Positions 1 through 30,223 of a stretch of 64,000 bases of DNA are shown one piece after another (the first letter of the stretch is position 1; each line of letters opens with the position of its first letter). Both the position numbers and the translations under genes were made by a program. Source of the DNA: Convolutriloba macropyga (Eukaryota); the NCBI RefSeq assembly GCF_964194025.1, contig NC_134481.1, positions 47,988,001 to 48,052,000 of the forward strand, read 5' to 3'. The notes beneath the pieces were generated by a model. That model searched no databases, was not told the DNA's origin, and saw only the letters and a program-made list of their open reading frames with translations.

Positions 1-496
1 CATTATGCTTAATTGTGTAAAGTAAAACTAAAGCATAGAAGATTACTTCTAAACACTATAAACAGCTGAAAACGACTTCAAGATTAGGAATATGGTCAAA
101 AAGCTAGAGAAAATCAAGCGACCGCGTGAAGATCAATTGGTGACAAGACAAAAAAACTTCCGACAATGACTTAGCCAAAATAAGTCCACCAATCGAAGAA
201 ACACCACGAGTCGATGACATCAAAAACTTGAAGCAGCAAAAATTCTGAACAATTAGAAGGCAACTGAAGTTCAATTAGATATCAAAGCACGAATTGATAT
301 TCATAATTTATAAATTTGAATATACAGATATGCAGCAAACTCTGAAATATCACGGCTACATTAGACATTTTTGGGCAGAAACTGGAAAGCATTTGGCACT
401 GAAAAAATTGTATTATAGCTCTTGTCACTTATTTTACCAAGTAAAGATAACCGACTACCGTTTGACTTTCCGCTCTCGAATGAAGCAATCGTAAAC

Positions 497-885: not shown

Positions 886-1334
886 TCGAAATTCGAAATA
901 TATGAGAAATGATTGCGACTCAATTTTGGGAGAAAACAAAATCTAATCAGAAAATAAATTAATGATTCAGAACTAAACAACGCTGAGCTCTGTTGCTAGC
1001 TCAATACTCATTCTTTGGATTTCAGTTAATGAAATACTTTGCGCATATTCAGTGTTAATATTGCAGTAAACCTACACCTAGTAGCGCGTCTAACTGAGTT
1101 CTTCAGCTGCAAGAATTTGAAAGCACATTGCTGTAATAGCTGCAAAAGAATAGACTTGCGTGCCGTATAATAGACACAGAAACATAAAATTGAAAAAGTT
1201 ATCGACGCCGACGAAATTAAAAAAGTTATCGACGCCGCCCAAAGAGCTATGTTGAAAAATATTCAGCGATCAATTAAAAAAGCTTGTTAAAATTCCTTGC
1301 GCGGAAGCCTTTCCATTAGGAACCTTTAGTACAC

Positions 1335-1369
1335 AGTTTAAAGTCAGGAACTCATCCTGACTTTAAACT
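1335..1369. repeat. Perfect 15-bp inverted repeat hairpin (duplicated at 3863-3897)
   Basis: agtttaaagtcagga-actca-tcctgactttaaact. Confidence 0.9.
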
Positions 1370-4300: not shown

Positions 4301-6020
4301 TAAAATATAAACAATTACAATATCATTCAGTAAATATATAGAAGGCAAAAAATACACAACATAAAAATTTTGACAGAAAAACTCAATGAAATCATGATGC
4401 CGCAAAACTTTGTAACTGAACAGATTTGGTAATTTTGGAAAAATAGACTAAATTCTTAGGATAGTCCAATAATGCTCAAAAAACTGCTCGGAAATTTTTT
4501 TTCCATGATCAAGATTCTGATCTAGAAAAGAAAGAACTCGGAAATCAACTGTATTACACAAAGACATTACAAACGCATACGGCAGATAAAATTCTCAGAA
4601 CCAAAACCCAATTTTTCATAATACAAAAATTTAGACCTCCAAATACCACTACTTTTATCGGTTTAGAGTCACAGCAATTAAGACAAAAATAGGATAAATT
4701 TCGGTCTTTCACTTTTTCTGAAGATATATAAGGAATTATACAATTGCAAAACTTAAAGCATAGACTGCAAATTGCCGAAAAAAGCCGCCACTGACCCGCT
4801 TGGCGCACATTGACTGAAACAGAAAATTAAGAGATGAAATTGAAGAAACTCCCGAAGTGTCAAAGTTCTTAATTGGTGTATATTCTTCATATTGGATTAG
4901 ATTCTACTATTACACTTAATTCAGCTTCTCAACTGAAGGCTATTAAGGATAATACTAATGCCAGCTCGCAACCGGTTTAATAAATTTTGATAACCTTATG
5001 CACTATGACATAGTGACCGGTCTTTATCGGTTTCTCCCGTTCCGTTTGCTCTTTTAAACTTGACCATACTCACTACATTACGTAATTCAATACATAAAAG
5101 AATAAAAAATTCATTCAGTTGAAACAATGAGTGAAGTAAGTCCGAAGTTAAGCGCGAAAATCATGACTTATGTAAAACGAAAAACGTGATCAAAAGGTGA
5201 AGCGAATTAAAAAAAGGAGAGCGCCTAAATCCAAACAGAAAAAAGAAAAACTGGACAAAAACTCCCAAAATCAGATTAACATGTGTACATTGTAAAACTA
5301 AAAGAACGAACGAAAAAGACCCGAAAATGAAACTGACGAAAAAATTGTGAAGTATGTGCCCATTTGAAACGCATTAGCAAGCTCCCAAAAACACCGTGGT
5401 AGGAATTGGCGATGGTCACATTTCAAACCAGGTATCGAATAAAAAATTTTATCAAACTAAATTAAAAGTAGGGCCGATAGGACAAAAAACTGCCTAAAAA
5501 CGGTTATCTATATGCACCATTCTGTCAAAAACAATTTTCAAAGTCGAAAAGTCATCACTGTGCGCAGCGCATGATCAAAAATCTTCTCTCGCTCCTCGCT
5601 AACACAATATTAGTTCACACGACAAGTTTACACACTTTCGCTTTTAGGTCAAAACGCCGTCTGAACGAATAGTACCTCCGGTAAAAAAACCTAAAGAAAA
5701 CCAACAATCCTCTTTGAGTGGTAAAAAAAACCAAGAGCATCGCAATATAGCTCCGCACAGTTTACAGCTATTAAAAACATGAAAATTAGCGCCTCTATTG
5801 TCGATTAAAAATGAATACAACGGATTGAAACAATGCCAACTTTCGGATTAATACATAACGAATCAATTGTCGATTGGTCCATAAGTTTTATAAGAAGGAT
5901 TGTATGGACTAGTACAAAAATGTCATGTAGCTGGCAAATTACACAGCCCATTGCCGTCCGTAAAATCTATGCGGTTTTCTATGCCAGTAAGATTCAAAGC
6001 GATAACTTAGTGGAACTGAC

Positions 6021-12179: not shown

Positions 12180-15100
12180 TGTAACAAATAATAATGCAGA
12201 CTTGAGAGCAAAAATCTAAGGGTTCCCCACACCCTCAGTTTTAGGAGTTACCAGTCTTAAGAGAAAATTAGTTTTGGCAATTAATACATTCACAATCGAT
12301 TCTCCAGGTACATGTCATTCACGTAGTAGTTTCTGTGAAAATCCAAGTACAGATCCAAAAGAAGAGATCCTGTGGTCCTCTTCAATATGAACTTCATTTT
12401 TGAAATAATCATAAAATACGTTTGCCAGGTTACAAGTTCGCATCCAAAAATCAGACTCGAATTTCTTTAGACAACAATTGGAGAAATGTTCACCAGCATG
12501 GCTCTCAAGTTAGACTAATACCTCTAATACGCAAAATTAAGACCGCGTACAGTTCCGTTGTCGACGTTACGAGAACTATGGCAAAAGGCTAAACAAAAAA
12601 CAATAGTAGTAGTAATAAAATCTTCGGGCTTTTTCCCGTGGGGTATCAATCCCCGTGTTCATCAGTCCATTTCAATTTATCTTTTTCCAGTTGTTACATG
12701 TTCCATATTTGCGCACTATTCGCCAGGTGCACCTGTTCAGTTGATTGAAATTGTGTGAAGTATTCCCAGTAAATGTTGGTGATTGTTTGCTTATTGAGTA
12801 CTTCGCCGTAGTTTCTGTATACGCGGGAGACAATTTTATAAAAGAAGCTTTGTTTGATGGAAGAAGTTTTCATCCGCTTTTGCATGCCTATTAAGACGTG
12901 TTCTACGGCTTACCTTCTTTAGGGTACTGCTGGAACTGTCTTATGGTTGTCTCAAGAATAATAGTTAATCTTAAGGCTTACCTGACTAACTAAAGTTCTA
13001 TTCCTCTAGTCTGTTACTCTTCTATCTGAGCTTCAGTAGACGGTGCACGGGCCCCAATGCTACGGTCTAACGTTTATCTCAATACAAAACAAGAGCGGAG
13101 TAGAGAGAGAGAAATATACTTTATTATTATATCAGGATGGTAACTGGTACTGACTAAATAACTTTCTCTTCTGCTGAGAGAGGGTAGATGGGTAAACACA
13201 TAGAGGGAAAGAAGGATAAAATAATATATTATTTTTATCCAATCAGAAAAGAGTATTTCAGTCTTTCTGAATAAAGTCTTTCAAAATATTAAATATTCCT
13301 TTTTGGAAGTCATATCTGACTCCATCTTTCCGGGGTTTAGAGTTGTTTTGAAAGTCTTCCAATAGAATATAGTAGAATATTGTTTATTAATTTCTCTGTA
13401 ATCTCTCTGAAGGATTTTCTTTCTTTTTGGTTGTGTTGCTTGAAGACCGGCTTGTCTGTGAGTCGAATCCGAAACATCGGTTACCCAAAGAGCAAAGAGT
13501 GAACATCAACAACCACAAAAGTATCTATTCCACCACCACACTATCCAGTGGACGGAGATCCTTCTGGGTAGGCCCGTCGTTGATGTTGTAGGTGTCCTGA
13601 TGTCCGGCGTCGACTTACCTGGTTTGCTTGGTTTTGTTAGCTGTTAGGTGTTAAGAATCGTTTTTAGATTCACTACATGTTCTAATACGTAGTATCCCTT
13701 CCGGTTGGAAAGAAAATCGAAAGAAGTATGTTATGTTTTGTTGTTTTAATTGTTAGAGAGTGACATAAAGGAGAGTATGTCAACGAAATGGCGAATAACG
13801 TGTTTGGTTTTAGTGACATGGGATTCGTCGGCCATGCTGATTGGTAATGTTGTTATAGCAATTGAACATGTATTAATTAATGCTCCTGCTTGAAATCATG
13901 AGTTACTGAATGGTATTAGTTCTTACAATTGTTTTGTCATACTTCACTGAGGAAACATTTTCCGTATCTGTAAGATTTGAAAATGCTGCTTAGCGCTTTG
14001 TTATATTTTTACATCTACCTGCCAGTCTCTTATGAATTTGTTTAAAGGCTTATAGATCTCGCTTATAGTAGTTTGTAATGGGTATGCCCACAGATGACAA
14101 GTTCTTAGTCCCAATCAACAGTTATTTATTTAATTACATAAATTAAATTAACGTCTCTGTCTGCGCGCTTATAAGTCAAAATCAGTGTACCCAAAGGTCT
14201 GAGTACTACCCATTATGTGAGTTGTTACGATATAAAAGATTATTTTGTTAGCTGTTACTATAATCAACATAGTTTGGTGTTTACATGTGTTGCATGTAGT
14301 CCGTTCATGATGTCTTAATATTGCATGTGAAAATTTCGATTTGAAGGAAAATTCTGTTCTTTTTTGTTTTTAATCTGACTGTTTCGTATATGTTACTCTA
14401 TGTTAAATTTATAGTTTGTCATAAACAATAAATTTGTAATGTACCTTGGGTATGGTAGACTGTAAATTATCCCAAAGAATTCATTATGTTATGATCTGTT
14501 TTATGAGATATTCTCATGTCCTATAGTATTGTGTTACTCAGTGTTGATAACATGGCTTATGAGTCATTTATTAAAATGTTATACACAGTATGCATGTGCA
14601 ATAGTTTATTTGTTCTGTTTTTATTTGTTCTGATTTTATTTTATTTGCCTATTTGCTTTATTTACAAAATTGCATGTGTGTTGCATATAACTAACTATGG
14701 GAAAATCTTTGCATATTTACATATACAGTATTATAAAGTAGGTTGAGTTTGTATCTAAAAAAAAATAAAAACTTGTTTTTGGCTTTAAACTTTTTATTTC
14801 AAAACTGATGAACATTGAGTATCAGAAATGGGTATGAGGAATAACATATGAATAACATATGATAGGTATGTTCCATAATCAGGGGGTAAGATTCAGAATC
14901 ATGAGTTTACAAATTGGAAGAATTTGTTTGAAATGATAAAGATAAAGAGTTACAAACATATGCAAAGATTACAAACATGGTTTGGCGATGTTACAGTTTG
15001 TTCGTTAATTACGAAGACATTGAATTGTTACTTGTTACACTGGACGTTACTATAGCTTCTGCGTTTGTTTCGGGTGATTACTCCTTTCACAGTAGTGATT

Positions 15101-15278
15101 ATATTCTTTCAAGAAGTATTCGTCCTTTGAGAGATAATATCCAAGTAAGTTGACGATTTCCTTTAAGGGGGTTTCTGTTATTGATGCTTGTAAGGCATTG
15201 CAAATTTCTCTTTCTGTGTCTTGAATTTTTCGTTCGTTATTAAAGTTTAGGCGGTTTGTAATTGCCTTATTAGTTACA
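12180..15278 (-). repeat. Candidate 3' LTR, ~3.1 kb
   Basis: Ends form an 11/12 inverted repeat: minus-strand start TGTAACTAATAA (15278) and end TTATTTGTTACA (12180). Preceded by a short purine tract CAGGGAG (15285-15279). Left boundary cuts a LINE fossil. The second LTR is not in the window. Confidence 0.65.
13120..13246 (-). promoter_or_regulatory. Putative LTR promoter / R region (CCAAT box, AT palindrome, Inr, polyA signal)
   Basis: ccaatcag 13239-13246; near-perfect palindrome ggataaaataatatattatttttatcc 13214-13240; Inr-like TCAGT 13153-13149; AATAAA 13125-13120 followed by a CT/GT-rich tract. Confidence 0.5.
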
Positions 15279-16693
15279 CTCCCTGTGAGGTGATATACAT
15301 GGTACTCCTCACAAGGTTCGATCGCTTCCAGAGGTATCATGAGCGGTCGCTCTGGTGCGTCCTTTGGCTGGAAGACGTAGTAGTTTTTAATTGGATCAAA
15401 GTTTCTCAATGTTCCAATAGTGTACTCCCATTTTAATTTGTAGCTATAATTGAGGAAGTATGGTGATGTCAGTTGGTCATTGATATGAACGTAGCTTTTA
15501 GATTCTGAATTTTGTTTGTCTCTAAGGAATGTATAATATATCAGATTGTGAATTAATTTCGTCTCGTGAACTCTATAATTGTTGCTTTGAACGTCCTTTG
15601 GTGTAGGGTGGAGGAAGTTAAAACTCAGTTGGAAAATCTGGTGTTGCTGTGTAAAGGCGCTGTATGCGGATAGATCTTGAGAGGCTTTTGCCACTAAAAG
15701 ATCAAAGTTACAGTTTACTGGTAATCGAAATTCATAGTCGTAGTCGTACAGGAAACGTTCTGTGAGACTGTAGAATTGTTTTAGCTTAGGGTATTGAGAC
15801 TGGTGTATCTTGTCTCTACCCATATTTTTTGTGCTTCTTTTTACGGTATTTGTGTTTTCCGACGGGAGTGGCGGAAAAAATTCTGACACACGATCTTTCA
15901 GCGTGTGTAAAGGTGCCATAAAGAAGTTATAGGATCGAGAATCGAATGGCATATCTGCCCAATTTCGGTACGAGAGGAGTGGGTTGTAGTTCATTCCGTG
16001 AGGGTTACTAAGATTTTTTGGATCCTTGTTTTGGAACCAAATCGTTTCCATGACCGTCTCGGTCGGGGTCTGTTCGTTCGTTGATTGATGAAAGAACGAT
16101 TTTCTGTTATTAGAGCGGGGTGTCACCGCATATGGAAATCTTAAATTGTTAGTGGTAGGCATTGTTGTTCTTGCGAATAAACGTTGTCTAACATTGTTCT
16201 GTGTTTGTGGTTGATCAATTACGTAGTTGTCTGATGGTGGGGGTGGACGTACTGGCGGGGGGTAATTCGGTAGGGGTGGTGACATATATGTGTCACTACT
16301 GTTATAATTATAATTTTGTCGTGGTCTTGTGTTTTGATAGCTATGTGTAGCTATATTTGTTCCTTGTTCCGATATATTGTTAATATTATTGTTACCAGTA
16401 TCAAAAGATTGCAGATTTCGTCGATTACCAAATCTGTTTTGTATCTTTCGGGCTATGTCTTGTGGTGTCTGCACAATGTGTGTTTCGTTTTCCAGTTCGA
16501 CTCTGAGTGTTTTGATATTCTCGTCATTTGTGATCATATTTGTTTCAGTTTGAGTCCCACAGTCAGATGCACAGTCCCGAATAGTCCCGGGGCTGGATCT
16601 GCCTGACTCACAACTCAACTCTCCTTCTTCCACTTCGTAGGAAAATGGCGAGTCGGATTTGTATGGCGAGTCGTACTCCATGTTAGATGCCAT
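15050..16693 (-). CDS. Intact 547-aa accessory protein of unknown function, downstream of env
   Basis: Long uninterrupted ORF in AT-rich DNA. Disordered Pro/Ser/Asn-rich N-terminal half and aromatic-rich, globular-looking C-terminal half. Branch point TACTAAT (16725-16719) plus ttttag acceptor 9 nt upstream of the ATG. Confidence 0.85.
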   Translation of the reverse strand: MASNMEYDSPYKSDSPFSYEVEEGELSCESGRSSPGTIRDCASDCGTQTETNMITNDENIKTLRVELENETHIVQTPQDIARKIQNRFGNRRNLQSFDTGNNNINNISEQGTNIATHSYQNTRPRQNYNYNSSDTYMSPPLPNYPPPVRPPPPSDNYVIDQPQTQNNVRQRLFARTTMPTTNNLRFPYAVTPRSNNRKSFFHQSTNEQTPTETVMETIWFQNKDPKNLSNPHGMNYNPLLSYRNWADMPFDSRSYNFFMAPLHTLKDRVSEFFPPLPSENTNTVKRSTKNMGRDKIHQSQYPKLKQFYSLTERFLYDYDYEFRLPVNCNFDLLVAKASQDLSAYSAFTQQHQIFQLSFNFLHPTPKDVQSNNYRVHETKLIHNLIYYTFLRDKQNSESKSYVHINDQLTSPYFLNYSYKLKWEYTIGTLRNFDPIKNYYVFQPKDAPERPLMIPLEAIEPCEEYHVYHLTGSVTNKAITNRLNFNNERKIQDTEREICNALQASITETPLKEIVNLLGYYLSKDEYFLKEYNHYCERSNHPKQTQKL

Positions 16694-17018
16694 AGTTGAA
16701 TGCTAAAACTCAAATATGATTAGTATAATCTGTATTATATCTTCGATTTAGTATATGTTTGTGATAATAAAAGTTGTTATACGTTGTTCTAATTATAAGT
16801 TGTTGGAATTATATGTTTTGTTAATTATGTGTTTGTTATAATAACAATTGTTATACATTCTGATGTCGTTTTTGTGAAACTAGTTTATAAGTAGTTTGTT
16901 TTAGTCTTATTGTTCCTTATGAATGAATAAAAATCAAAAAATGGTATGGTAAAAAATTTGGCAAGTAATGGCGGGTGATTAGGTAATGTTAGTTGTTACT
17001 AAATGGAATTGTTTGTTT

Positions 17019-20000
17019 TTAGATTTCGTATGTATCAGCCGAATGGGTATCATAATATGTGACTTCATTCGTATGTGGCTGATCATTTTTAAGAATATCT
17101 AGGCTGTAGCTACGATTCTGCATTTTGTTATTTGCTAGTTTTAATTGGTTGAAATCTATTGGTGGCGGGTTCTGAATTTCTAAAAGTCTGGGAGTTGGTA
17201 TTAGTTTATGTTGATTATGTTGATTATTTGATGGTTGAGGAATTTCATATTGTGTCTGTTGTGTTATAGGTGATTCGTATGAATAGGGTTTAATCTGTAT
17301 GTGCGATTGTTCTATATTAGGTGCGCTTGGAGTTGGTATTGGGATTGATACAGGTGGGAGACTACTCAAGCGTTGGTACGCTGGAGGCGGTGTTATAAGT
17401 TGTGGTGGTATTGGTGGTAGTGGTTGGGTTTTGTTTTCATTTATTGTTGTTAATGTTTCCATTTTGAATTGTTCTGTTTTGTGTTTTCTTTCTGGTAGTG
17501 GTGGTGCTTGTTTCTTTGTTGGTGATTCTAATGTACGTAATTGTAGACCATGTTCTGTCCTACGTATAGTAGTGTTATAGTGTTTGTAGTTCGTATCTAC
17601 ATAATGTTCTGTTGGTTTATCTCTACGCGTTAATGTTGGTATTTCTGTTGAATGTCGTCTGAAATGTTGAATATGTATTCGTGAAGTATTATGTCCTTTA
17701 TTGTAATGTGAATTGTTATCATCATTACTATTATCATTATTATTGTCGTAATCATCTTCTTGTATTTGTGCAACTAGTTGGGTTAGTGTTTGTGAGAATA
17801 TTCCGAATATTCCTGTTAGGAGTATTTTTGTTATGCTTGCTTGTTTCCCAATCGCTTTGTGTATTGCAAAAGCGTTGTAAAATTTTATGATTAGGTTTGT
17901 TACAAATAATATCATGCTCATCATCGCATAGATGATAGCCATCTTTTCAAGTATGTACCATGGCCAACCAAAGATAGATAATATCTGATCTTTCAGCCAT
18001 GCTGCATCGAAAATTTCTTTCCAGTTTACACTTGGTTGATCAATCTGGAAGTTATATCCGTTTATATTTAAGTCCTTTAACCATTTAAGTGAATGTTCAT
18101 AATTTTTGTATGTTTGTAGTAATCCTAATTGTTCTAATTCTAGTAGTTTTTGTGCGTTAGCAGATTGTGCTTCTTGAAGCGGTTTTTCGCGGTCTCTCAT
18201 ATATTCGTGTAGTAAATCTCTTTTTCGTTCCTGTATTAATTGTTCCTTGCTGAAGATTCCACTTTCAATGAGGCTTGCTTTGCTGAACATGTTATCAAGT
18301 ACTATTTCTTCTGGTGATATTGTTTCTAATATTGTTTCTACTTTTATTGGATATGGTGTCAATCTGTATCTTACTGTTCCTTCTGTGTCTATTGAAATTA
18401 GTTGATCGAAATTACTATGTGAACATGGAACCGTTTTCGCCCAAAGGTAAGTTTGTCGTGTTAGTTGGTGTACATATTGTACTCTATTTTTGTATAGTAT
18501 TGGTATCTTGTCGTAACATTCACGTGTTTGTGGTACGTATAGTGGTGAAGATTTCTTTGCACATTTGTACATTTTCATCACATTAACTCCTTCTTGTTTC
18601 ACAAATATGGATCTATCTCCTGTAAGGATGTATCCTAATAGTGGTGTATTCTTTTGTACTTGTGTTAGAGCCAACTGTCGAATATTGCGAGTTTGTTCGC
18701 ATATCTGTGAATAGAATTCTATTGCCTGAAGACTAATGCGTGAATATATATTACTCATATAGAGGTCCATTTTCATTTGTAGATGTGTGTTCTCGTTTAC
18801 AAAACGATAATAATAATTTTGATGTTCCTCGTCTTCATATCTTGTGTATGCATTTGACATAATTTGTTGTGGTTTGATTTTTATAAATTTTTCTTCTTCA
18901 AATTTGTCTTCTTTTCTTGTTACTTTAAGTCCTGTATGCATGTCAAAACCATATTCGTATATTATATAAATATCATCGTATTCTGTTTTATGAAGTGGTT
19001 GTGGTGATCCTTATTCTCGTTCAACCAATGGGTAGATTTCAAATCTTGTTGCTATTGATGATGTATCATTATATTTTACTTTTTGATGTACATCTGGTTT
19101 TTGTACTGATGACCATTCCGCGTTTGTTTCTATCCAATACCGTTCCTGATACTTAACCATATATGCATCAAACCTAATAAGTTCAAATAGTTGGCAATGT
19201 GTTTGAGGTTCCCAAATGATTGTTGCTTTTGTAAATGGTGTTGGTAAACATTCTCCCTTGTGGAGATCACATGGTAGTTTTGTTCCCATATATGATATGT
19301 CTTTTGTATCAAGATTTAGTATTAACGAGACTTCTTTTATCTCTAGAGTCCAGTCTAAAATATCAATTCTATTTTGTTTTTTGACGCCTGATAGGCAGTT
19401 TGATTGTGCATTTTTGATTTCATTCGGTACCCACATTGGATTTGTATAATCATATACCAATCTTCCATATGGTGGTACCATTGGAGTGTCTATTCTGAAT
19501 TTTATATTTCCTTGTACGTTTTCTAGTCTCTTTTGTAATGGTGGGTTTGATAAGTAATTGAACGATATGTTATGCCTTGTTGGCTTGTATTTTGTATTTT
19601 TAAGAACGTTAATTCTGGCGAGTTCGTTACGAACTTCGTCTGGGTCTAGGATTTTCGTTCTTCGTGCATCTGATACGTAATAGCTTGGTCTGTTTGCTCT
19701 AATGTAATGAGTGTGTTGTGAACACCATTCTACTTTTTCTTTGATTGTTCCTGTAACAGCATATGCTTTAATTTCTACAGCTTGTGCTTTTGATAGTAAT
19801 TGGACTTCTGTTTTAGTCATTTCTAAGTCTAATGGTTTAAATTTACATGTGCTGATTTTGTTCAGTTCGTAGTATTTTACGTTTGTTATTTCTTCTGCAT
19901 CGCAGTCGTAGTGTTCGATAAAAATGTCTTGAGGTCCGACTGCTGATCCATTAATATTTTGTCCTTTCAATTCAACGTAATCTTCTTGTGTCTGTCGTTT

Positions 20001-20451
20001 ATTTCTTTTATTATTTAGTTGGAATTTTTCCAAAATACTGTCTGTTAATTGTTCTGTAGAAATTCCAATTTCGTGTCCATTTATCTATGGCTATTTCCCA
20101 CATTTGTTCGTAATCTGTACTATTCGTTAATTCCTTTAAGTCTGGTGAAGTGTACTTCGATGGTAATTTATATATTTCCATATCAAATGTTGTTGTATTA
20201 TCTAATACATGATCTATTAACGTTTTAAAATTATCTTGATCAGTTCCATTTATGTTATTTGTGTTTATTTTGTTTTTCTTTTGTAAGCGTTCCATATGTT
20301 TTTCCATACGCTCTTGTACATGTTCTTGAATTTGTTCTCTAATATTTTGTTTTGTTTTATATTTTGATCTTATTTCAGTGTCTATTTTCATATAGATAAA
20401 TAATGTTATTAGTAATAATATTAGTATGAGAGATTTTAATTGAAGCGGCAT
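17019..20451 (-). pseudogene. env: Envelope glycoprotein (chuvirus G-like), ~1143 aa, disrupted by one frameshift (~20085-20035) and one in-frame TAA (19013-19011)
   Basis: Joins ORFs 20011-20451, 19011-20033 and 17019-18941. N-terminal hydrophobic LILILLLITLFI; furin site KRNKR (~19995-20009); Cys/aromatic pattern IEHYDC..C..VQLL..WCSQHTH, CDLHKGEC..IIWEPQTHC, FYSQICEQ..KMYKC..ECYDKIPILYKN..VPCS; C-terminal TM WPWYILEKMAIIYAMMSMILFVTNLII. Confidence 0.85.
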
Positions 20452-21890
20452 GTGTATGATAGTCCGGTGTGTGGATTATAGAATGTTGCAAATCCTAAAG
20501 TTTGTTTTGTGTATCGATCGAATTTGTAGATGAAATCAATGCAAACAAATGGTGCTGGTATCGTTGTTGTTACAGTAGATGGTGTTGTCGCGTGGAAAGG
20601 ATGGTTGTATATGGTGTCGTATTTTATTGTAGTATTGAATTTTAGTTCTAGTGATGGTGTTGCTAGAACTTCAAGTGCTGAGTTTCGTTGGCGATGTGTT
20701 AAGTTTAAGGTATTTGTAAGTCTATTTCTTGACCAATTTGTGAGAGTATCTCCAAGATTAGTTGGTCCGTATAGTGGTGGAGGTGGATTCCAGGTTTTAT
20801 GATCTAATGGGAAAAGATATGTATGATCATTAGTTCTACTTAAAGTAGGTGGATTTGGGTTGAGTACGGGTGTTGCTCTAGTTCTTCCAGGGTGTGTAGA
20901 TGATAATCTTATTTCTGGTATAAATGAAGTAGGTGATAATGCTCTATGTTGCGGTGGTTGTAGAGAATTTGCTATTTCTATTCGTGGTACGCTAATAGAT
21001 GTATTTGTCAATGAGGATGTTCTTGGTGTTCTTTGTGGTGTTGAACTTGTACTTGCTGATTGTTGTGGTGATGTTGCTGACCAAAGTGAGCTATTTGGTG
21101 ATTGTATTGGTTGTACACGGAAGTGTTCTTGTACAAAATTGAAATCTTGTCTTTGTTGTGTTGTTGGCGGTAAAAATGGGTTAGCTCTAAGTTCTGATGA
21201 TGTGGGTGTTGGTATAGTATGCACACTTGATTGGCTTGGTGACGCGATACTAAAGTTTGATAGTGTTGGTGTACCTATTCGAGTTGGTGTTTCTGTTCGT
21301 TCTGCTTCTAAAGGTCTTATTATGTTTGATTCTATATCCGTTGATCCGTATGATACTAATGTAGAGTCTTGTGTAGGAAAAGATAATGATGCTCTACGTC
21401 TACCTCTTAAAAGGTGTCGTGTATCTGTTCTTGCTCGTCTTACTGTATATGGGTTTTCGTTTTCGGGGTTTGTTTCTTCTATTTCTGGCGATGTGGGTAT
21501 ATTTGTTAAGTCTGTTACTTCGTTATGATGAGGTCTTTCTGGGTGATTGTTACTATTGTTATTATTATTTGATGAAGCAATTTTTGCTGTTTTTAAATAA
21601 TTTCAGGCTCCAGAGCCTGGTCCAGGTGGTGGATGTGGTATGAACGGTGGGGCTAGTATAACTACTGGTATTAATTCTTGTTCTGGTTGGTGTGTTTGAG
21701 CTCCTAGGTTTGTAATCCAAATTTCATTGGTTGTGAGTCTAATATTGAGTTGATATATCACAATGTTACCATGTAATGGGGATGTGTCGGGGAATCCAAT
21801 TTGGAGGTAGAACTTTTGTGTATGTAGTGTATGATATATCGATTCTTCAATGTCTGGGTTGGTATCAATTTTTATGGATTTATAAAGTAT
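20436..21890 (-). pseudogene. ~485-codon Ser/Thr/Pro-rich accessory ORF with one internal TGA (21605-21603); overlaps the env start
   Basis: The frame of ORF 20436-21224 stays open upstream to 21890 apart from a single TGA (GSGA*NYLK). No ATG is present at its start. Confidence 0.65.
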
Positions 21891-22028
21891 TCAATTAGTC
21901 CTAAGCACGTACGTACGAAGAAGTATATTATAATTGCAATTTTTTTAAATTTAAATATTTCTAGTTCGACAATATCTATGTTTGTTTTGCATATATGATA
22001 AATATCGGAGTGAGTTTCATGCATCGAT

Positions 22029-22325
22029 TTATTGTACTGGTGGGCTTGCATATACCACTCGTCGGTTGCGTAAAACTTCGCTTATTGTTACAATAGCTAA
22101 ATATGCCGATACTACTACAATGCAAGGTACTAAGAGTATTGTTAGGAAGAATATTACTTTAGATAATATAAAGTAGATTGCGATTAAAGATTCGTTGAAA
22201 TCTATTTTTGAAACTGATAAATAAACTACAACTTTGTTAGTAATTACGTAAGTGTGAGGTGTAATGCTGCACTGCGAAGTGACAGTTATTTGCTCAATTG
22301 TAACTGACACTAAACCGTGCCGCAC
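22029..22325 (-). CDS. Putative small membrane protein (accessory)
   Basis: 98-aa ORF co-oriented with the element; long hydrophobic stretch LIAIYFILSKVIFFLTILLVPCIVVVSAYLAIVTI followed by basic RNRR; starts at GTG. Confidence 0.4.
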   Translation of the reverse strand: MRHGLVSVTIEQITVTSQCSITPHTYVITNKVVVYLSVSKIDFNESLIAIYFILSKVIFFLTILLVPCIVVVSAYLAIVTISEVLRNRRVVYASPPVQ

Positions 22326-22439
22326 TACAGATATTATTATACTGTATTTATCTGTAGATTACTATGACAATTACTGGTATCATATTTGAAAGTTTGTGTG
22401 GCAATATATTTCTTAAAATGTTTCTCTTTGGTTTTGTTT

Positions 22440-22913
22440 TTAAGACGTGCTTTTATCGTCTATGAGGGTTATAGCGTCCTTTTTACACACAACTATAAAA
22501 ACTGTTTTTAGTTTGTTAAGGTCAATACATTGGTCTGTTTGAATCTGTTGTTTCAGTAAGTTATACTCTGTGATTGTTTCGTTACAAACGGTTATTTGTT
22601 TTAGTAATTCAAAATGTTTTTCTCCCCAGAATAGTTTTACTTCGTGTCCGCTTTCTGTTTTTCCTTCAATAATAAATAAACAATCTTTATCCGAGAATTG
22701 ACAAAGTGTTGTTCGTATACTATCGTTATCAAAATGAATGTGATTACCAAAAGTGTAATCTATATTTGCAAAATCTTCTCTTTGGACTTGTATTTTTATA
22801 CAAAACTGTTTCGTATTCAAAGATTTGAAAAATTCTGACACTTTTATCATTGGTGGTTCTTCATCACTGTGGTGACTGTAGTGATGAATTAGTCTTTGGT
22901 AGAAGAAGTTCAA
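22440..22913 (-). CDS. Putative 157-aa accessory protein of unknown function
   Basis: Co-oriented ORF with globular protein-like composition; the annotated start is TTG, with an internal Met in PPMIKV. Confidence 0.55.
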   Translation of the reverse strand: MNFFYQRLIHHYSHHSDEEPPMIKVSEFFKSLNTKQFCIKIQVQREDFANIDYTFGNHIHFDNDSIRTTLCQFSDKDCLFIIEGKTESGHEVKLFWGEKHFELLKQITVCNETITEYNLLKQQIQTDQCIDLNKLKTVFIVVCKKDAITLIDDKSTS

Positions 22914-23994
22914 ATAGTTTAATGAATATTTAAATGGATTCAGCTTACCTTGTGTTTGTTGAAATGTTGAATGAAAAGGATAAATGAACGACTTGCGACA
23001 AATATGGAAAAAGTTGTGAAAGAAGTTATGAAATTATTCAAAACTTGTTTAGTTATTGAGGAATTTGAATTTCTCTTTTAAGATAGAATATTTTCAGTCT
23101 TAAGACTAAATTTTGTTTGTGATTTAGAGTTTTCAGCTTAGCTGAGTTTTTTCACAATTTTTTGAGGTTTTTTAAACAAATTTAACGGTTGTTGTTTTTG
23201 CGAAGCAAAATTAGAATTGTGATTTTTACTTTCCTTTCGAAGGCTCTCTACAATGTTGGTGACATTTTCATATCTTCCGTTTTTCATATTTTGGATTTTA
23301 AGTTGTCAATTTTAGTAATTACTGGGTCCAATTATGGTGTTAGTTTCCTCGTTTGATGAATTGGACTTTTCTGTAATTGTTCCGATGCTCTTTGTTCTCG
23401 AGGTTTTTGTTTTCCTTGTAATTGGTATGTTGACATTTGTTTGATGGTGTGATGGTATGCTTTCAGCATGGTATGTTTAGTCTTTCCTGGTGCCAATTAT
23501 ATGGTATCAATAGAGTTGGTCTGTTGTTTTTATGTTCATAATGCCATATCTATTGTTCTGAAGTAATCTCTGTCATCATTAGAAAGGCTCGTTAACGATG
23601 GTTAGTGGCGCTTGCGGGTGGTGGTTAGTGGTGCCAGTTATCATCAGCTTGGTACTTTTTGTTCCAATTAGCTGTATGGTATATTTGTTGTATACCTTTG
23701 ATGGTGCAATTCTGCAGATGGTGCAACTCTGCAAATTGTTAATTATTGACGTAGATGAAATGTTTATTTCATCTGCTAATGGTCTTGGTAAGACCTGTCT
23801 TGTTTAATCACCGTTGTGTTAGGTGAAAATGTTAATTGGTTTACCCTTTGTATTTTGTTACTAATTGCGTCTGCATGGAGACTGTTTGTCTCTGACGTGT
23901 GTCGTTTAAGATATCTTTGTTCATTATTGATGGTGTCAATTTGGTACTTTCTTCTCTTTAATTGGTTTTAGTTTTAGTTTGGGTTTCTAAAGAT

Positions 23995-24141
23995 AACGTC
24001 CGTTTCGTTACTAATGATGTCTGTGACATTTCAGTTATTGACGTCCGTTAAATAATAACGTCCGTATTTTCACTAATGAGTTGTATAATGTCCGCATTTT
24101 GCACTAATGAGTTGAATAGCGTCCGTTTTTCACTAATGAGG
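23995..24141. promoter_or_regulatory. Array of four CGTCCG-N(6-8)-ACTAATGA units, ~30-bp period; enhancer-like
   Basis: acgtccgtttcgttactaatga; acgtccgtattttcactaatgag; atgtccgcattttgcactaatgag; gcgtccgtttttcactaatgag; one extra acgtccgt at ~24041. Confidence 0.55.
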
Positions 24142-25983
24142 TTTATGACGTGTTAGTTACTGACGTATGTAAAAGTTATGCAGATTGGTTTGCAAAAGTG
24201 TGTAGAACGTTCATATTATCGAAGATTTCTTAGCCGAAGTATTCAGATGTATCATGGGTTTTATGTGGTTAATATACAGAGGTATGTTCTGATTGTAATG
24301 AAATGGAAATGTTTGTTTATGTTTTAGATCTGATCTCTGGTGTTTATGATGCAGGAAATTATGAGATGATGGGGTGGTAACAGATTCTGTATTTATTATT
24401 TCGTATGGACGAAATTATTCGTTATAGTTGGAAATTGTTATTTGTTGAATATTGTTGCTGAAAGTTGTTACGTACTTATTCGGTTTATTTGCTTATTCGT
24501 CTAATCGACACATTAATGAAGTTATTCCGCATGTTACTTTACGCTCATTATTTTGTAACTTCCGCTTTTTTCGTTTACACTTGTCATTATGCTACGGTGT
24601 ATATTAATTGTATTTTGTATCGTTATTTTAATTAGTTCTTTTTCCTTATTTTCATTATTTTCCACTGTGATTAGTCATCGCTAATATCCTTTTTCTATCT
24701 GTAGTCCTTAAATGGGATACGTTATTAAGATTGTTAACAATCTCAAAATATCTATTCCATTCCGCGAGGTGGATATGTGCATGATCCTTTGTGGTCAAGA
24801 TCATTTATTAATAGTTTGATTATTTGTTATTTTGATTTATTGACTTTTTGTTTGCTTTGTTTACTGTTAATATCAACTATCTCATAACGTCTATTCCAGT
24901 TTTAAGCTTCTGAACATAAAAAAAATAATAAACCGTTTGTTATTTGAATTTTGTTTTTGCTTTCTTGTTTATATGAGAATTTACCCTGTGTGTTAATCTT
25001 CAGTGGGGTTTCATGGGCTACTATCAATACCCATCTGTTTTAGTATATCCAGTTCGGATATTTTCATTTATTTATGTGTTTATTTGATTATTTGTTCTTT
25101 GTTTATTGTTCTGATGATGGAGATGGATGATGGCCATTATGAATGTGGATTAAGATGGTGGAGATGTATACTGTTGTCAGTTAGTACAGACTCTTCGGTT
25201 TTTGTACTTTCATCAGTACAGAGGTGTATTCAGTGATCGTGTGTGTGCCGTTAACAAACTGAGATGTATTTCTTTAACTGTTTTATATTTTTATCCCTTT
25301 TTGTTTTTAGAAATCTTTCCCATGTTACTAAAAGGTGTGAACGGTAGGCAATATAACATTTATTAATGGTTGGATAATATAGCATTTGTTAAAATCTTAA
25401 TTATGGGTCTTGCATCAAATGAAATGAAATAGTTAAATTACATTGGTATTATGTGGTTTTAACTATAGGTTAGAGGTTAGTTGGAGGTTAGGTGGATTTG
25501 AGCACCTTTTAGTATTGTTCTTTATATATCTGTTCTGTTTGTTATTTATATTGTTTATGTACTTTTTTAATTTATATGTCCTTTTGTATGTTTTGATTTT
25601 ATTGGGGGGGGGGTTATGACACACTAGGTTCGGGTTAGGTGGGAAAGTGTGTCTTGTATAAATACCAAACGTATGAAACATATTATGAAAAAAGAAAAAA
25701 AAATGTTGGATATAAATTGTAGAAATACTAAACACTATTTAGGTGTTGTATTGAATGAAAAGAATATTTTACAGCTAATATGCGCTAATATGGCTGTGGT
25801 AGTATATTAGTTGTTGAGTTGATAATCTTTCCACTTTAGATTATTACAATAGCTGTAGTTTGACAAACCATTTGAGGAGTAACAAACTGTATATTCTAAT
25901 CGAAGGTAGTGCTGTAATCGTATTAATACTGTTATTATTATCAATATTATTATTATTATTATTATTACTTATAATAAAATTGA

Positions 25984-28104
25984 CTAATAAAGTTGGGGAA
26001 TTGTTATTTTCTTCTTTCGAAGATTGTAATTATGAGATTGTGTGATCCCATCAGGTGGTGTATATTGTTTTGTTGGTGTTTGTGTATTGGGTTGTTTTAG
26101 CGTTGGGATTTCTTTCGTTAATAAATAATTTTGTAATTCTAATTTAATATGTTTTTCTTTCGGAAAGTATGGTACAATATGATTTCTATGTAGTGTAATG
26201 TGTTTATTAGTGTTGTCCTTCAGTATGTAGGTTGTTTCTGTAGGCTTATCAATAATTAAATATGGTCCCGTTTTTAGAGGTATTAATTTCTTTGATACTC
26301 CGTCAATCTGTTGTTGATTTGTGATCAAGACGAATGTGTTTTTATCAAGTGGTTTCGCCGTTCTGAACCGTGAATTTAATTCATCAGTTAACTTTTTTCT
26401 ATTTCTTAATATCGTTGTTATTGTTTGATATGTATCATTATAATGTTTTTCTTTATCAAGAAACCATTTTGCGAATGTTCCGTTTTGTAGTTTTGCTATT
26501 TTGGGGTGACTGAATTGTTTATCTAAGTGAGTATGAGTGGGTTGTGTATTGCATGCGCTTGTTCTTGTTGGGTTACAGTTTCCCATCTCGTCTGTAGTTG
26601 TTCCAAGTTTAATCTTTGTTGGTTTTCTAGGTTTTTGATTGAAAACTACTTCATAAGGTGACATGCCTAATCTTGTCTGGTATTGGGTATTATATGCATA
26701 CGGAAAGAATTTTGCTTTTCTAGACCAATTTTGGTACTTTTCGTTGAGTAATGTCCTTATAAATTGTCCAATTATTCTATTAGTTCCTTCTACTAATCCG
26801 TTTGTCCAAGGTGCATATGTTGTGCTTGGTTTAAATTTGATTTCGAAATAATTACAAAGATGTGTTAATTCTGTATTTATATATTCCGATCCGTTATCGG
26901 AACGAATTTCTTCGGGTAGTCCGAATTTCATAAACCAATGTTCAAATAATGCTGTAACTGCGTAGTGTGCATTGTTCTGAGGCGCACACATTATTGTTAC
27001 GTAATGCGAGAATGCATCTACTATCACAAAAATAAAATTGTTTCCTTCAGATGTAGGATGTATTGGACCTTTTGTGTCTATCATAATCATTTCATTAAAG
27101 TATGTTTTTGTAGGTGCTAATTGTTCTTGTTTACTTTTCGTTTTTGTGTTAGCGAAAACTTTGTTTGTTTGACATTGTATGCAGTCTGCGATCAGTATCT
27201 TGATCCAAGTTGTTAAGTTTGGGAAATAATATTTTTCCATTATGTTTCTTTTTGTTTTTTCAAGTCCCGTGTGACCAACTGTATCTACGCAATGGTTTTC
27301 GTAGAAAACACATAGTAGTAATGTTAGTGGCAAACAGATTCTTTGTATTGTTTGTTTCTTTATTCGGATAATCATTTTCATTATGTTTGTTTTTTCGTCA
27401 ATAGTAATTGACTTAAACTTTCTGTAATATGCGAATAGACCTTTATTTCCACGTATGTCCATTGTTACTGAATGTGGTTTATTGTTATTTTTCTTCCACA
27501 TTTTGACTTTATGAAGTACTGGGTCTATTATTTGTGTTTCCTTAATCAATTCTTCTGTTACTTTTGTTTTTTCATCATAGAAAATATCTGTTATTTTTGC
27601 ATGTTCGAAATTATGTTCTTGTTTCACATTGTTGATTAATCTAAGATAATCATCGTCGTGATGGGTTATGTATGGTCCTTTTTGGTTTTTCTCTATGATT
27701 AAGTCATCTTTTTCAATGATTGGTGATTGCCAGTTTTTTGTTTTTGGTTTGTATTTCGGTACTAAATTTGTTTTTGTTTCAGTATTATATTTTTCATATG
27801 ATATCGGATGGTATTCGTTTTTATCAATATTAATTTCAAAGTAGTTGTTATGTATATTGGCTAGAACTGGATAATGTGTTGTGTCTTTGTTATCGTTGTT
27901 TGTATTGTTACAAATACTGTATTTACATTCTAGATTATTTGCAAATGGTGATTTCGCAAAGAAGAATTTTATGTTTTCAGGTATTTCCACTGTAATATCA
28001 CGTGTTTTTGTAAAATGTTCTTCATCTATTGTTCTACTTAGTAGGTCTGGTAAAGCTAAGTTTTTTCCTTCAGTCCATATGATATGTAAGTTAGGAAATT
28101 TCAT
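25984..28104 (-). CDS. pol: Gypsy pol, 3' part: end of RNase H, long spacer, integrase (HHCC, DDE core, GPY/F)
   Basis: GKNLALPDLLSR (RH end); H..GHTG..CIQC; MIDTKGP, IVDAFSHY, IRSDNGSEY, NGLVEGTNR; KTGPYLI..LHRNHIVPY; terminal YNLR. Confidence 0.95.
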   Translation of the reverse strand: MKFPNLHIIWTEGKNLALPDLLSRTIDEEHFTKTRDITVEIPENIKFFFAKSPFANNLECKYSICNNTNNDNKDTTHYPVLANIHNNYFEINIDKNEYHPISYEKYNTETKTNLVPKYKPKTKNWQSPIIEKDDLIIEKNQKGPYITHHDDDYLRLINNVKQEHNFEHAKITDIFYDEKTKVTEELIKETQIIDPVLHKVKMWKKNNNKPHSVTMDIRGNKGLFAYYRKFKSITIDEKTNIMKMIIRIKKQTIQRICLPLTLLLCVFYENHCVDTVGHTGLEKTKRNIMEKYYFPNLTTWIKILIADCIQCQTNKVFANTKTKSKQEQLAPTKTYFNEMIMIDTKGPIHPTSEGNNFIFVIVDAFSHYVTIMCAPQNNAHYAVTALFEHWFMKFGLPEEIRSDNGSEYINTELTHLCNYFEIKFKPSTTYAPWTNGLVEGTNRIIGQFIRTLLNEKYQNWSRKAKFFPYAYNTQYQTRLGMSPYEVVFNQKPRKPTKIKLGTTTDEMGNCNPTRTSACNTQPTHTHLDKQFSHPKIAKLQNGTFAKWFLDKEKHYNDTYQTITTILRNRKKLTDELNSRFRTAKPLDKNTFVLITNQQQIDGVSKKLIPLKTGPYLIIDKPTETTYILKDNTNKHITLHRNHIVPYFPKEKHIKLELQNYLLTKEIPTLKQPNTQTPTKQYTPPDGITQSHNYNLRKKKITIPQLY

Positions 28105-30020
28105 ATTAGTATCAATTGAAATCTGTAAACTCTATGGTTTGGTTTATTCTTTTGTATAAAGAGGTAAATGATTAGCTTGTGGTCTGTAAATAAAATTATT
28201 GGGTGATTTGAACCTGTTAATAAGAATTCGTATTCTGTGAGTGCGAAAATGATCGCTGAACATTCTCTAATTAGTGTAGATAATCTCATTTCAATCGGTG
28301 TGAAAAGTCTAGAATTTGCTGAAATTAGTCGCATTTTCTTTTCAGTTGGATGTTGTTGCAGTAGTGCTGCTCCAATGCTTGTGTTGGATGCATCTGTTAT
28401 AATGTAAAATGGTTTTGTTGTATCCGGTATTGTTAATTCTAGGTTGTGTGTTATTGTCTTTTTCATTTGTTCAAATATTTTTTGATGTTCTTTAGTCCAT
28501 TTGAAATCATTTTCTTTGTGTAGTAGATTGTATAATGGTTGTAATATTGGTTGCATTCCGTATACGTATTTGGCTAAAAAATTTATTGTTCCTAGGTATC
28601 GTTGTAAAGCTTTCATACTTGTTGGAGGTTCCAGTTTTTGGAATCCATCAATTCGTGATGTAAGTGGTTTTACTTTTTTGTCTTCGATGATATGACCTAA
28701 AAATTTTACTTTCTTTAACATGAAGTATGTTTTATCAGGTGCTGCTTTTAAGTTCTCTTTAAGCAGTACTTTGTGATATTCAATCAATGTCTCGAACATT
28801 TGTTCGTAAGAGTTTGTTTGAATAAAAATATCATCCACATAGGTGATGACTGTTCCTTTTCTAATTAAAGGGTAAAGGAAATGTGTTAAAATTGAAGCGA
28901 ATGCTGCTGGTCCGATTGATATTCCGTAAAATAATCTTTTGAAACAATATTGTTCGTTTCCAATTGTGAAATGTGTATATCGCATTGATTCTTCATCTAA
29001 TGGTATTTGGTTATATGCGCTATTAAGGTCTGCAGTTGTGAATATTGTTCCGTTTATTCTTGTTAAAGCTACATCAACTGGTTCAATTGGCCAGTTACAC
29101 TTTGATTCATCTATCATGCTGTTCAAATATCTTGCATCTATTACAATCTTTAAAGATTCTCCTTTTCGTAGTATTATTACCGGGTTTGTGAATGTGTTTC
29201 CTGTTGATAGTTGTTCTTTATTCACGGGTGCGATTATGTCATATTTTTTAAGAACATCTAACAGTTTTTGTATCCGTTCTCGAAGATGTATAGGTACTTT
29301 ACTTATTCTTTGTTTTTTGAATATTGCATCTTTTTTCATTGGTAAATTCAATTTTACTTTCGTTTTTCCTACGTCAAATTTTGTTGTTGCGTAGACTTGT
29401 TTATAGTCTAATATGATTTTTACTACTTTTTCAAATTCTTCTTGTGTTAAGTGTGAGTGTTGAAAATCAAACATTGTTATGAATTCTTTCTCTTGTTCTG
29501 AATATTTGTTAATGTTAAACTTGCATTTGAAGTTTGGTTTTCTTTCAAATGTTGCAACTTGTTCAATAGTTTCGTTTTCTTTGATGTTTAATATTTCTTC
29601 AATATCGTTTTCATTTTCGTATGTCAGATGGTACAGTGCTTGGAATAAGTCGATAGAGTTTGTGTAGTATAGTTCGTTATCTTGTTTTTTGAAGTTAATA
29701 TTCCTGTTCATGAAACCAATGAGTCCTGTATTTATTGTTATTCGATGTCTGTTTTTGTTGATCAATAGTATATCCATAAAGTATTCTTCGTCTGAGGAAA
29801 AATCTTTTATATCTGTAAATGATACGTTATGATATTTGTTTATTGGTTCGAAATAGAATTTCGATTTCTGTATTGTTTTATCATTTGAATGTTTCATTTG
29901 TTTAAATATTGGTATTGGAAATGTTATGCTTTTTTGTTGATTTGGTTCTATATAGATTGTTTCTCTATTAATGATTGTGTATAATCGGGAGTAGTAAGGA
30001 TAACCTTTAGTACTATTCAT
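28101..30020 (-). CDS. pol: Gypsy pol, 5' part: reverse transcriptase and RNase H (truncated by gap; frameshifted relative to the integrase ORF)
   Basis: NPVIILRK, IVIDARYLN, TADLNSAYNQI, RLFYGISIGPAAF, YVDD (28841-28830), FLGHII, ITDASN..GAALLQ, RECSAIIFAL, FTDHK. Confidence 0.96.
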   Translation of the reverse strand: MNSTKGYPYYSRLYTIINRETIYIEPNQQKSITFPIPIFKQMKHSNDKTIQKSKFYFEPINKYHNVSFTDIKDFSSDEEYFMDILLINKNRHRITINTGLIGFMNRNINFKKQDNELYYTNSIDLFQALYHLTYENENDIEEILNIKENETIEQVATFERKPNFKCKFNINKYSEQEKEFITMFDFQHSHLTQEEFEKVVKIILDYKQVYATTKFDVGKTKVKLNLPMKKDAIFKKQRISKVPIHLRERIQKLLDVLKKYDIIAPVNKEQLSTGNTFTNPVIILRKGESLKIVIDARYLNSMIDESKCNWPIEPVDVALTRINGTIFTTADLNSAYNQIPLDEESMRYTHFTIGNEQYCFKRLFYGISIGPAAFASILTHFLYPLIRKGTVITYVDDIFIQTNSYEQMFETLIEYHKVLLKENLKAAPDKTYFMLKKVKFLGHIIEDKKVKPLTSRIDGFQKLEPPTSMKALQRYLGTINFLAKYVYGMQPILQPLYNLLHKENDFKWTKEHQKIFEQMKKTITHNLELTIPDTTKPFYIITDASNTSIGAALLQQHPTEKKMRLISANSRLFTPIEMRLSTLIRECSAIIFALTEYEFLLTGSNHPIILFTDHKLIIYLFIQKNKPNHRVYRFQLILI

Positions 30021-30023
30021 GTA

Positions 30024-30223
30024 NNNNNNNNNNNNNNNNNNNNNNNNNNNNNNNNNNNNNNNNNNNNNNNNNNNNNNNNNNNNNNNNNNNNNNNNNNNNN
30101 NNNNNNNNNNNNNNNNNNNNNNNNNNNNNNNNNNNNNNNNNNNNNNNNNNNNNNNNNNNNNNNNNNNNNNNNNNNNNNNNNNNNNNNNNNNNNNNNNNNN
30201 NNNNNNNNNNNNNNNNNNNNNNN
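30024..30223. other. Assembly gap separating the Gypsy pol from unrelated sequence (other gaps at 37213-37570, 53678-53828, 55520-55674)
   Basis: Runs of N. Confidence 1.

Follow-up and report, generated by a model that had tools for sequence, protein, structure and literature searches.

A damaged copy of a recently mobile 21-kb Ty3/gypsy family with a chuvirus-class env and six selected accessory genes in Convolutriloba macropyga

The window analysed here is a stretch of 64,000 nucleotides from the genome of Convolutriloba macropyga (NC_134481.1, positions 47,988,001 to 48,052,000), and the element in question lies on its minus strand, between positions 30023 and 12892. With a probability of roughly 0.65, it is a damaged member of a Ty3/gypsy family of about 21.3 kb that has moved recently; besides a chuvirus-class envelope gene (env), the family carries six accessory genes under selection, and it is likely an analogue of the complex enveloped retroviruses. 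Comparison of the copies in the genome establishes the architecture, the copy number, recent transposition of the long terminal repeat (LTR) type and purifying selection on six frames. Complex retrovirus-like behaviour of the family is likely, and it may be infectious.

The element and its copies in the genome

The 3' ~17 kb of the element is present in the window, and its sense strand is A-rich, as the first-pass annotation of this DNA had noted. The window lacks gag, protease and the 5' LTR: the element is interrupted by a run of 200 N (30024-30223), at which homology to other copies stops. The 3' portion of the gag-pro-pol frame (25984-30023, minus strand, as are all features of the element) gives domain matches to reverse transcriptase (RT), RNase H, bridge and integrase, confirming the gypsy-type pol recognised earlier. 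This copy is damaged at three places: pol has a frameshift near 28103, and env, which is in three pieces, has another near 20052 and an in-frame stop at 19011-19013.

The intact unit is seen in other copies. Of 2,520 candidate matches in the 1.18-Gb genome to ORF-E, an open reading frame (ORF) located after env, 79 were scored, with 87-100% identity and no stop in 72 of the 79. Among the 24 copies from these matches that were examined in full, one by one, 22 have both LTRs (431-434 bp long), and 21 of the 22 have a 4-bp target duplication. The two LTRs of a pair show 0-5 differences over ~433 sites, and 10 of the 22 pairs are identical. Given these paired near-identical LTRs and the 4-bp target duplications, the family must have moved recently. 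The unit measures about 21.3 kb (21.1-21.5 kb in 19 of the 22 two-LTR copies), instead of the more than 22 kb projected earlier, and comprises a gag-pro-pol frame of about 2,570 amino acids, the chuvirus-class env, LTRs of 433 bp and a tRNA-Met primer site. A gag-pol frame of more than 2,500 codons lies inside the retrieved stretch in 8 of 22 copies. Exact LTR-primer junctions number 314 genome-wide, and the motif at the start of the accessory frame ORF-C2 has 426 matches versus 2 in a control.

The gag-pro-pol frame (2,576 amino acids) contains Retrotrans_gag at 592-666, a CCHC motif at 800, a protease motif at 1116, and the RVT_1, RT_RNaseH, Integrase_H2C2 and rve domains. The best solved relative of the RT is Ty3 Gag-Pol (173 bits, E 3e-50), versus 85 bits (2e-23) for Pr125Pol and ~31 bits for HIV RT. 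By its domain order and this best match, the element is assigned to Ty3/gypsy. An RT lineage closest to Ty3 places it outside the Retroviridae, and the gypsy-type Pfam set, together with the same RT affinity, argues against a BEL/Pao-type polyprotein; BEL/Pao polyproteins match other Pfam families.

The primer site is complementary to the 3' end of tRNA-Met(CAT), whose genes form large arrays. Long tandem arrays of them are located at C1:77.67-77.77 Mb and C4:55.03-55.08 Mb, with 97 pattern matches genome-wide and tRNA-Thr interspersed in L132. In one of the 22 copies (L119, copy C1c), the primer site matches the tRNA-Met end over 18 bases versus the usual 14, which is the expected result of tRNA copy fixation during reverse transcription. 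Copies of the family are dense in the central parts of several chromosomes, for example at C9:42.96-42.99 Mb and similarly on C1, C3, C4 and C5, and two copies on C9 are 1.1 kb apart.

An LTR of ~3.1 kb had been proposed for the 3' end, but the actual LTR is 433 bp long and spans 12892-13324, since the LTR pairs of other copies measure 431-434 bp. When five copies were compared with the window, all lost their match at 12889-12892, and only 12892-13324 is repeated, upstream of gag in four of them and in the stretch of the fifth. The proposed span therefore joins 1.7 kb of internal non-coding sequence (13325-15049), which ends in a purine-rich tract adjoining the LTR, the LTR itself, and 0.7 kb of flank; positions 12180-12891 are flanking DNA, in part a different repeat. 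The LTR has TG...TA ends, AATAAA at its position 200 and two strong splice-donor-like sites, at 12981 and 12913. The 3' non-coding region of the window contains a single perfect 5' splice-site 9-mer (13613-13621, minus strand), and a tandem pair of such 9-mers is present in 26 of 26 other copies, from three subfamilies, ~290 nt upstream of the purine tract (e.g. L011:6588-6605). The tandem pair may perhaps form a U1-binding element restraining late RNAs or polyadenylation, by analogy with papillomaviruses.

The accessory frames and the selection acting on them

The distance between pol and env is 5.5 kb and is occupied by five selected frames, with a sixth beyond env. Behind pol, copy alignments delimit a non-coding spacer of ~3 kb (22950-25983), in which the block 23123-23311 is ~75% retained in subfamily 3 without coding signal and constitutes a candidate internal promoter. 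ORF-A (22440-22943) encodes 136 amino acids from an AUG at 22850 or 167 from a conserved CUG at 22943; its coding constraint extends ~33 codons upstream of the ATG and starts at an AG/GT site (22949/22948). The 157-amino-acid ORF annotated at this place is thus a real coding frame with other limits. An 11-codon AUG mini-frame follows (22348-22383), under weak constraint (p = 0.02). ORF-B (22029-22205), previously listed as a 98-amino-acid transmembrane (TM) ORF, is a selected frame with one strong TM segment and an acceptor-like AG at 22214, but its 109 open codons in this copy result only from a small indel, and the constrained part is 58 codons long and has no ATG.

ORF-B2 (21872-22024), a frame of 50 amino acids with an AUG start and a hydrophobic C-terminal half, was recognised from constraint across copies and had been overlooked. 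The ORF of ~485 codons reported in the first-pass annotation is coding, but it is made up of two frames separated by a stop, namely ORF-C1 (21603-21869, 88 amino acids, with a predicted AUU start 2 bases past the B2 stop), seen in copy alignments, and ORF-C2 (20436-21581, 381 amino acids, with a predicted AUU start and no Met), supported also by a related family, S. The stop between them is not a lesion, because it is present in all three subfamilies. ORF-C2 is AUG-poor, has an N-terminal part rich in Ser, Thr and Pro and a conserved C-domain of 120 amino acids, and overlaps the env AUG with its 3' end. Beyond env, the 547-amino-acid orphan was confirmed as ORF-E (15050-16693), which has its own AUG after an acceptor-like AG at 16703, a disordered N-terminal half and a conserved C-domain.

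The six frames (A, B, B2, C1 and C2 before env, E after it) are under purifying selection. The ratio of nonsynonymous to synonymous changes (dN/dS) is a counting estimate on variants found in at least 2 rows, not a codon-model fit; L020, L028 and L051 were excluded from the alignments for their deletions, and L066 also from the alignment of 25 rows. Over 29 rows, dN/dS is 0.41 for A, 0.18 for B, 0.26 for B2, 0.39 for C1, 0.27 and 0.11 for C2, and 0.11 and 0.32 for env, while the alignment of 25 rows gives 0.25 and 0.10 for E and 0.05 and 0.12 for env windows. All six accessory frames are well below 1, the value near which unconserved accessory ORFs had been named beforehand as a refuting sign. 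Non-coding controls range from 0.69 to 1.60 (30 window-frames) and the wrong frames of the accessory/env block from 0.97 to 2.75, and the right frames are without any shared stop. The env ectodomain, at 0.05-0.11, is below the pol tail (0.24). Among the 29 other copies, the frame is open in 25 for A, 29 for B, 28 for B2, 27 for C1, 23 for C2 and 13 for env. As a caution against the reading given above, these ratios come from counting on related, probably recombining copies. Two further frames were discarded: an antisense frame of 233 codons over C2 (20827-21528, plus strand), which has a dN/dS of 0.59 and 3 shared stops, is a shadow of C2, and a frame of 55 codons in the spacer (23141-23305, dN/dS 0.79-0.85) is not coding.

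That the block came to lie behind a gypsy pol by chance, or is neutral captured cargo, retains next to no probability. Nothing was found in its favour, although it could not have been dismissed on the window copy by itself, and the comparison of copies refutes it: the gene order is fixed between paired LTRs with target duplications, and every frame is under purifying selection. Copies with this pol but without the block had been named as the sign of such a juxtaposition; the block is found downstream of pol in 22 of 25 stretches selected via ORF-E, the exceptions being two internal deletions and one truncation, and in 6 of 6 subfamily-3 copies selected via pol alone. Subfamily 3 has ~73% DNA identity and measures 21.0-21.1 kb in three measured copies.

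The envelope glycoprotein and the predicted folds

The chuvirus-type env of the first-pass annotation proved correct. Env (17019-20451) contains two stretches above the cut-off of PF24664 (Monjiviricetes fusion glycoprotein), with a match of 50 bits versus a cut-off of 27. Its hydrophobic segments are located at residues 5-23 and 838-856 (TM), its furin site at 150, and its tail of ~240 amino acids is Pro-rich and contains PPAY and PSAP, each motif being present in 28 of 30 copies. The furin site, the TM segment and the tail motifs are retained across three subfamilies. PPAY/PSAP-type motifs recruit budding factors of the endosomal sorting complexes required for transport (ESCRT). Gag-Pol contains none of the PPxY, P(T/S)AP and YPxL motifs, and in family S the PPxY- and PSAP-type motifs are both found in the C2 homologue and not in env. 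A profile search of solved structures gave no match to env.

In the case of the accessory proteins, the model of ORF-A is a small beta-sheet plus helix with a predicted local distance difference test score (pLDDT) of 66. Foldseek searches of viral and PDB libraries gave it no match at E<=0.001, and its best Z of 4.9 (SAS-6 head, root-mean-square deviation (rmsd) 4.3, 113 aligned) is within noise. ORF-E has no Pfam or PDB sequence match. About 50 residues of its model form an SH3-like barrel most similar to the KOW domains of Spt5 (Z 7.2, rmsd 1.5, 49 aligned), a similarity within the range of common arrangements, and its C-domain may, with low confidence, contain such an SH3-like (KOW/Tudor) barrel.

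Start codons and splicing of the block behind pol

ORF-B, ORF-C1 and ORF-C2 have no AUG of their own. ORF-C2 has 0 in-frame AUG in 381 codons and 2 out of frame, one of which is the env start, versus 9.6 by codon shuffle, and 0 of 500 shuffles came as low; its family S homologues also have 0 in frame, and 2-5 in total versus 7.6-8.7 expected. The 2.4 kb separating the A and env starts contain 9-14 AUG in each of the 29 rows, compared with 17-21 per kb in pol and env. ATT-GCN-TCN opens the conserved part of ORF-C2 in all 29 rows of the main family and in all 4 copies of family S, its context having A at -3 and G at +4; beside the family S motif no AG is kept. Read from AUU, this motif would give Met-Ala-Ser, as at the Gag and E starts. 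At ORF-A, a CTG just behind the AG/GT site is kept in 28 of 29. Initiation of ORF-C2 at AUU has, on these features, slightly better than even chances.

Several points weigh against it. The invariance of ATT says little by itself, as 4 of 10 conserved Ile sites in ORF-C2 are likewise single-codon, and subfamily 3 (p 0.016-0.042) and one family S copy (p 0.10) show a weaker loss of AUG. Moreover, the acceptor-like AG sites of A, B and C2 are all in phase 1, and a start supplied by splicing would fit this pattern. A, B and C2 would then be alternative last exons joined to a short upstream AUG exon, as in CERV of the Cer1 element, and would need no non-AUG start. In family S, an AUG exon of 33-36 codons (100 or 109 nt), open and hydrophobic, lies in the LTRs (L154-L156); it ends in phase 1 at a splice donor and matches the acceptor-like site before the first accessory gene, whose AUG directly follows a conserved CAG/GT; the constraint on A starting at an AG/GT site points the same way. 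Nevertheless, this alternative is judged unlikely: in the LTR of the main family, stops close the frames leading up to each of the two donors, a scan of gag and pol in subfamily 1-2 stretches gave no strong donor in any of the 8, the C2 acceptor at 21587 is poor in pyrimidines (13 of 30) and is not kept in family S, and splicing alone does not explain the loss of AUG in all frames of C2.

Another alternative is that C1 and C2 form a single protein of ~480 amino acids by stop-codon read-through, as the earlier codon count implied. The two share one frame in most copies, across spacers of three lengths (6, 7 and 9 codons), which fits read-through and is a further point against separate starts. 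However, the stop is TGA in subfamilies 1-2 but TAA in subfamily 3, family S has the same Ile-Ala-Ser-Ser start without an in-frame C1 partner, and C1 would still be without an AUG, so that read-through appears improbable. The scarcity of internal splice donors (2 versus 4.1 in shuffles) is not significant. Contigs of four runs, of unspecified kind, span the whole stretch, and no joint at the predicted sites was found among 15 of the 122 listed, which is uninformative on splicing. AUU starts for C1 and C2, with leaky scanning through C2 to the env AUG, remain the likely arrangement.

Related families in the same genome

Family S measures 16.5-16.6 kb, has LTRs of 318-328 bp and the same primer site, and its RT is 59% identical and its env 28.5% identical to those of the main family. 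It retains the C-domain of C2 before env (41% over 120 amino acids) and the C-domain of E after env (34% over 234 amino acids). A further family, of 18.2-18.4 kb, has three tandem frames of ~105 amino acids before env, two of them joined by an overlapping stop/start, and three frames after env. Its three pre-env frames match ORF-A (HHalign 91.5%) and also an alignment (A4) of family S ORF1 with two post-env frames (HHalign 81.8%). A direct profile match of ORF-A to alignment A4 failed (probability 0.3%), the link passing only via the paralogs of the 18-kb family. ORF-A belongs to a small beta-rich protein family common to several element families in the genome.

Elements of the 18.2-18.4-kb family (L071-L076, L086-L088) are located at C15:43412813-43431023, C6:25225486-25243860 and C12:29345337-29363533. 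They have LTRs of ~810 bp, a Macro-like match in pol and stop-start-linked ORF-A paralogs before env, followed after env by a frame of 284 codons without AUG in any frame and by two further paralogs. Smaller env-bearing gypsy families occur at C2:74480977-74493410 and C5:24945263-24956080 (L078-L079, L084-L085); one is 12.4 kb long, with identical LTRs of 368 bp and a 611-codon (611-amino-acid) frame after env, and the other has a RING frame after env. At C10:8010526-8018216 (L081-L082) there is an LTR element of 7.7 kb that has no pol but contains an open env together with two other frames, one of RING type and one of 320 codons; it is likely a non-autonomous env carrier.

In a quick RT tree of 37 rows, which included no reference elements, 17 rows (the families of this genome and relatives without a name) form one long-stemmed clade with a Shimodaira-Hasegawa-like approximate likelihood ratio test (SH-aLRT) value of 100. 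RT relatives that bear names are at most 32% identical. Homologues of the E domain form 234 clusters at 50% identity; none of the 7 looked up carries a name and none of the 10 scanned matches Pfam above cut-off. ORF-E has no relatives in metagenome contigs and env none in viral contigs, and the relatives P0174 (65% identical) and P0192 were not found in this genome. Judged by these sequence comparisons, the clade varies its accessory gene set, and the ORF-A paralogs have multiplied in the 18-kb family.

A proposed life cycle and its weighing

The element may be expressed as follows. Full-length RNA, primed by tRNA-Met, would yield Gag-Pro-Pol, and shorter RNAs, spliced from the LTR donors or initiated in the spacer, would supply the accessory/env block. 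AUG would be the start of A, B2, env and E, and AUU likely that of C1 and C2; most ribosomes would scan past the AUG-poor C2 to the env AUG, in the manner of rice tungro bacilliform virus. Membrane fusion would be the task of Env, whose PPAY and PSAP tail would likely recruit host budding machinery; Gag is without such a motif. Particles would then pass from cell to cell and reach the germline. The best guess for E is a regulator of RNA or transcription, given its possible KOW/Tudor-like barrel.

Other points count against this view. No RNA, protein or particle of the family has been observed, a Pro-rich tail can contain PPxY and PSAP by chance, just 13 of the 29 copies have an open env, and ORF-E is poorly modelled (pLDDT 37, with a top Z of 7.2 across 49 residues). 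It is conceivable that the element moves solely inside cells, with env and the accessory genes acting cell-internally or from cell to cell without a free infectious particle. The breakage of env in over half of the sampled copies agrees with this, and all close relatives found are ENA-source proteins without a name or reside in this genome, with no spread to distant hosts among them. On the other hand, an env ectodomain with a dN/dS of 0.05-0.11, below the 0.24 of the pol tail, and a furin site, TM segment and tail motifs kept across three subfamilies speak against it, and purely intracellular movement is considered rather unlikely, at about one chance in four.

The preferred reading of a complex enveloped retrovirus analogue can be extended, tentatively and at somewhat less than even odds, to the whole clade: an undescribed invertebrate gypsy lineage would have independently turned into complex infectious retroviruses, with genomes of 16-21 kb, a self-budding chuvirus-class Env, six accessory genes of their own families duplicated and shuffled between lineages, AUU leaky scanning in the style of a plant pararetrovirus, and copies of very recent origin that number in the hundreds in a single genome. 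Independence from the vertebrate complex retroviruses is suggested by an RT nearest to Ty3, a placement made without a reference-clade tree.

Other features of the window

The window also contains near-identical tandem duplications at 479-5530 (2.5 kb, 99.3%), 48913-52167 (1.6 kb, 98.5%) and 52887-56486 (1.8 kb, 91-97%), which are either true repeats or a doubling in the assembly. An inverted repeat with arms of 333 nt (88%) at 55957-56750 is possibly a miniature inverted-repeat transposable element or a foldback element. At 57318-62242 there is a decayed RT-bearing element in two diverged copies (66-77%), with an RVT_1 fragment at 61714-62190 (plus strand).

Comparison with known systems

The capture of env beside a gypsy pol is not new: gB/chuvirus-type env in this position is described as widespread ("ancient errantiviruses"; PMC13524379). 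Those elements are similar in their gag-pol-env order, in the chuvirus-like glycoprotein next to a gypsy pol and in their many near-identical recent copies, but they have three ORFs, and the word "accessory" is absent from the main text, whereas the present family has 5.5 kb and five selected frames from pol to env, a sixth after it, and 21 kb in total. The survey accepted no more than 1 kb from pol to env and, for non-insects, a total of up to 10 kb (PMC13524379). In most of its searches these filters would remove the present layout, and the compactness of the three-ORF elements is a property of the search filter and not a biological definition (PMC13524379). In the literature searched, no description of such a multi-gene env-bearing gypsy clade was found; most subscription papers and Repbase lay outside the search, and the element tables of PMC13524379 may hold relatives.

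Some examples of other invertebrate elements with similar traits are Tor, Burro and Cer1. Oikopleura Tor is gypsy-like, with a glycosylated, furin-cleaved Env and an env RNA made by splicing or from an internal promoter, but has three ORFs and no accessory block in the description available (PMC4402516). Planarian Burro also exceeds 20 kb and has env homology and accessory content, but it is longer than 30 kb and joins env and extra domains in one polyprotein of ~4,900 amino acids, in contrast to the separate env and small frames, the 2,576-amino-acid gag-pol, the short LTR and the 21 kb found here (PMC6431247). CERV of Caenorhabditis elegans Cer1, which exports genomic RNA as Rev does (PMC10309623), and the bdelloid ORF3 types (PMC5408684) are likewise accessory genes in invertebrate gypsy elements; in these, one extra gene replaces env, versus six beside env here, and no sequence link between CERV and E was seen (PMC10309623, PMC5408684).

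Rice tungro bacilliform virus has an AUU-started first ORF, ~900 AUG-free nucleotides and scanning to a later gene, which resembles the arrangement proposed for C2 and env, but it is a plant pararetrovirus in which the mechanism was demonstrated experimentally, while here it is predicted from sequence only (PMC5902531). Foamy and foamy-like fish retroviruses share accessory genes near env, spliced RNAs, a possible internal promoter and genomes of up to 17 kb, where the present family offers splice-like sites and a candidate promoter; they belong to the Retroviridae, in contrast to an RT closest to Ty3 and an env of the chuvirus class (PMC7828637, PMC6431247).

Accessory complexity around env is usually viewed as a trait of vertebrate retroviruses, and the invertebrate env-bearing gypsy elements described in the sources consulted have three genes or one extra. 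The trait of complex Retroviridae (foamy, lenti, epsilon) of several selected accessory genes around env is found in the present family. A young, high-copy family with six such genes, whose relatives vary the set, makes the convergence of enveloped retroelements on the complex-retrovirus plan testable, and it belongs to a kind of element that current surveys filter out. Additionally, it offers new small protein families (A, C2 and E), and its env may be an LTR-element gene that is reached by leaky scanning past an AUU start.

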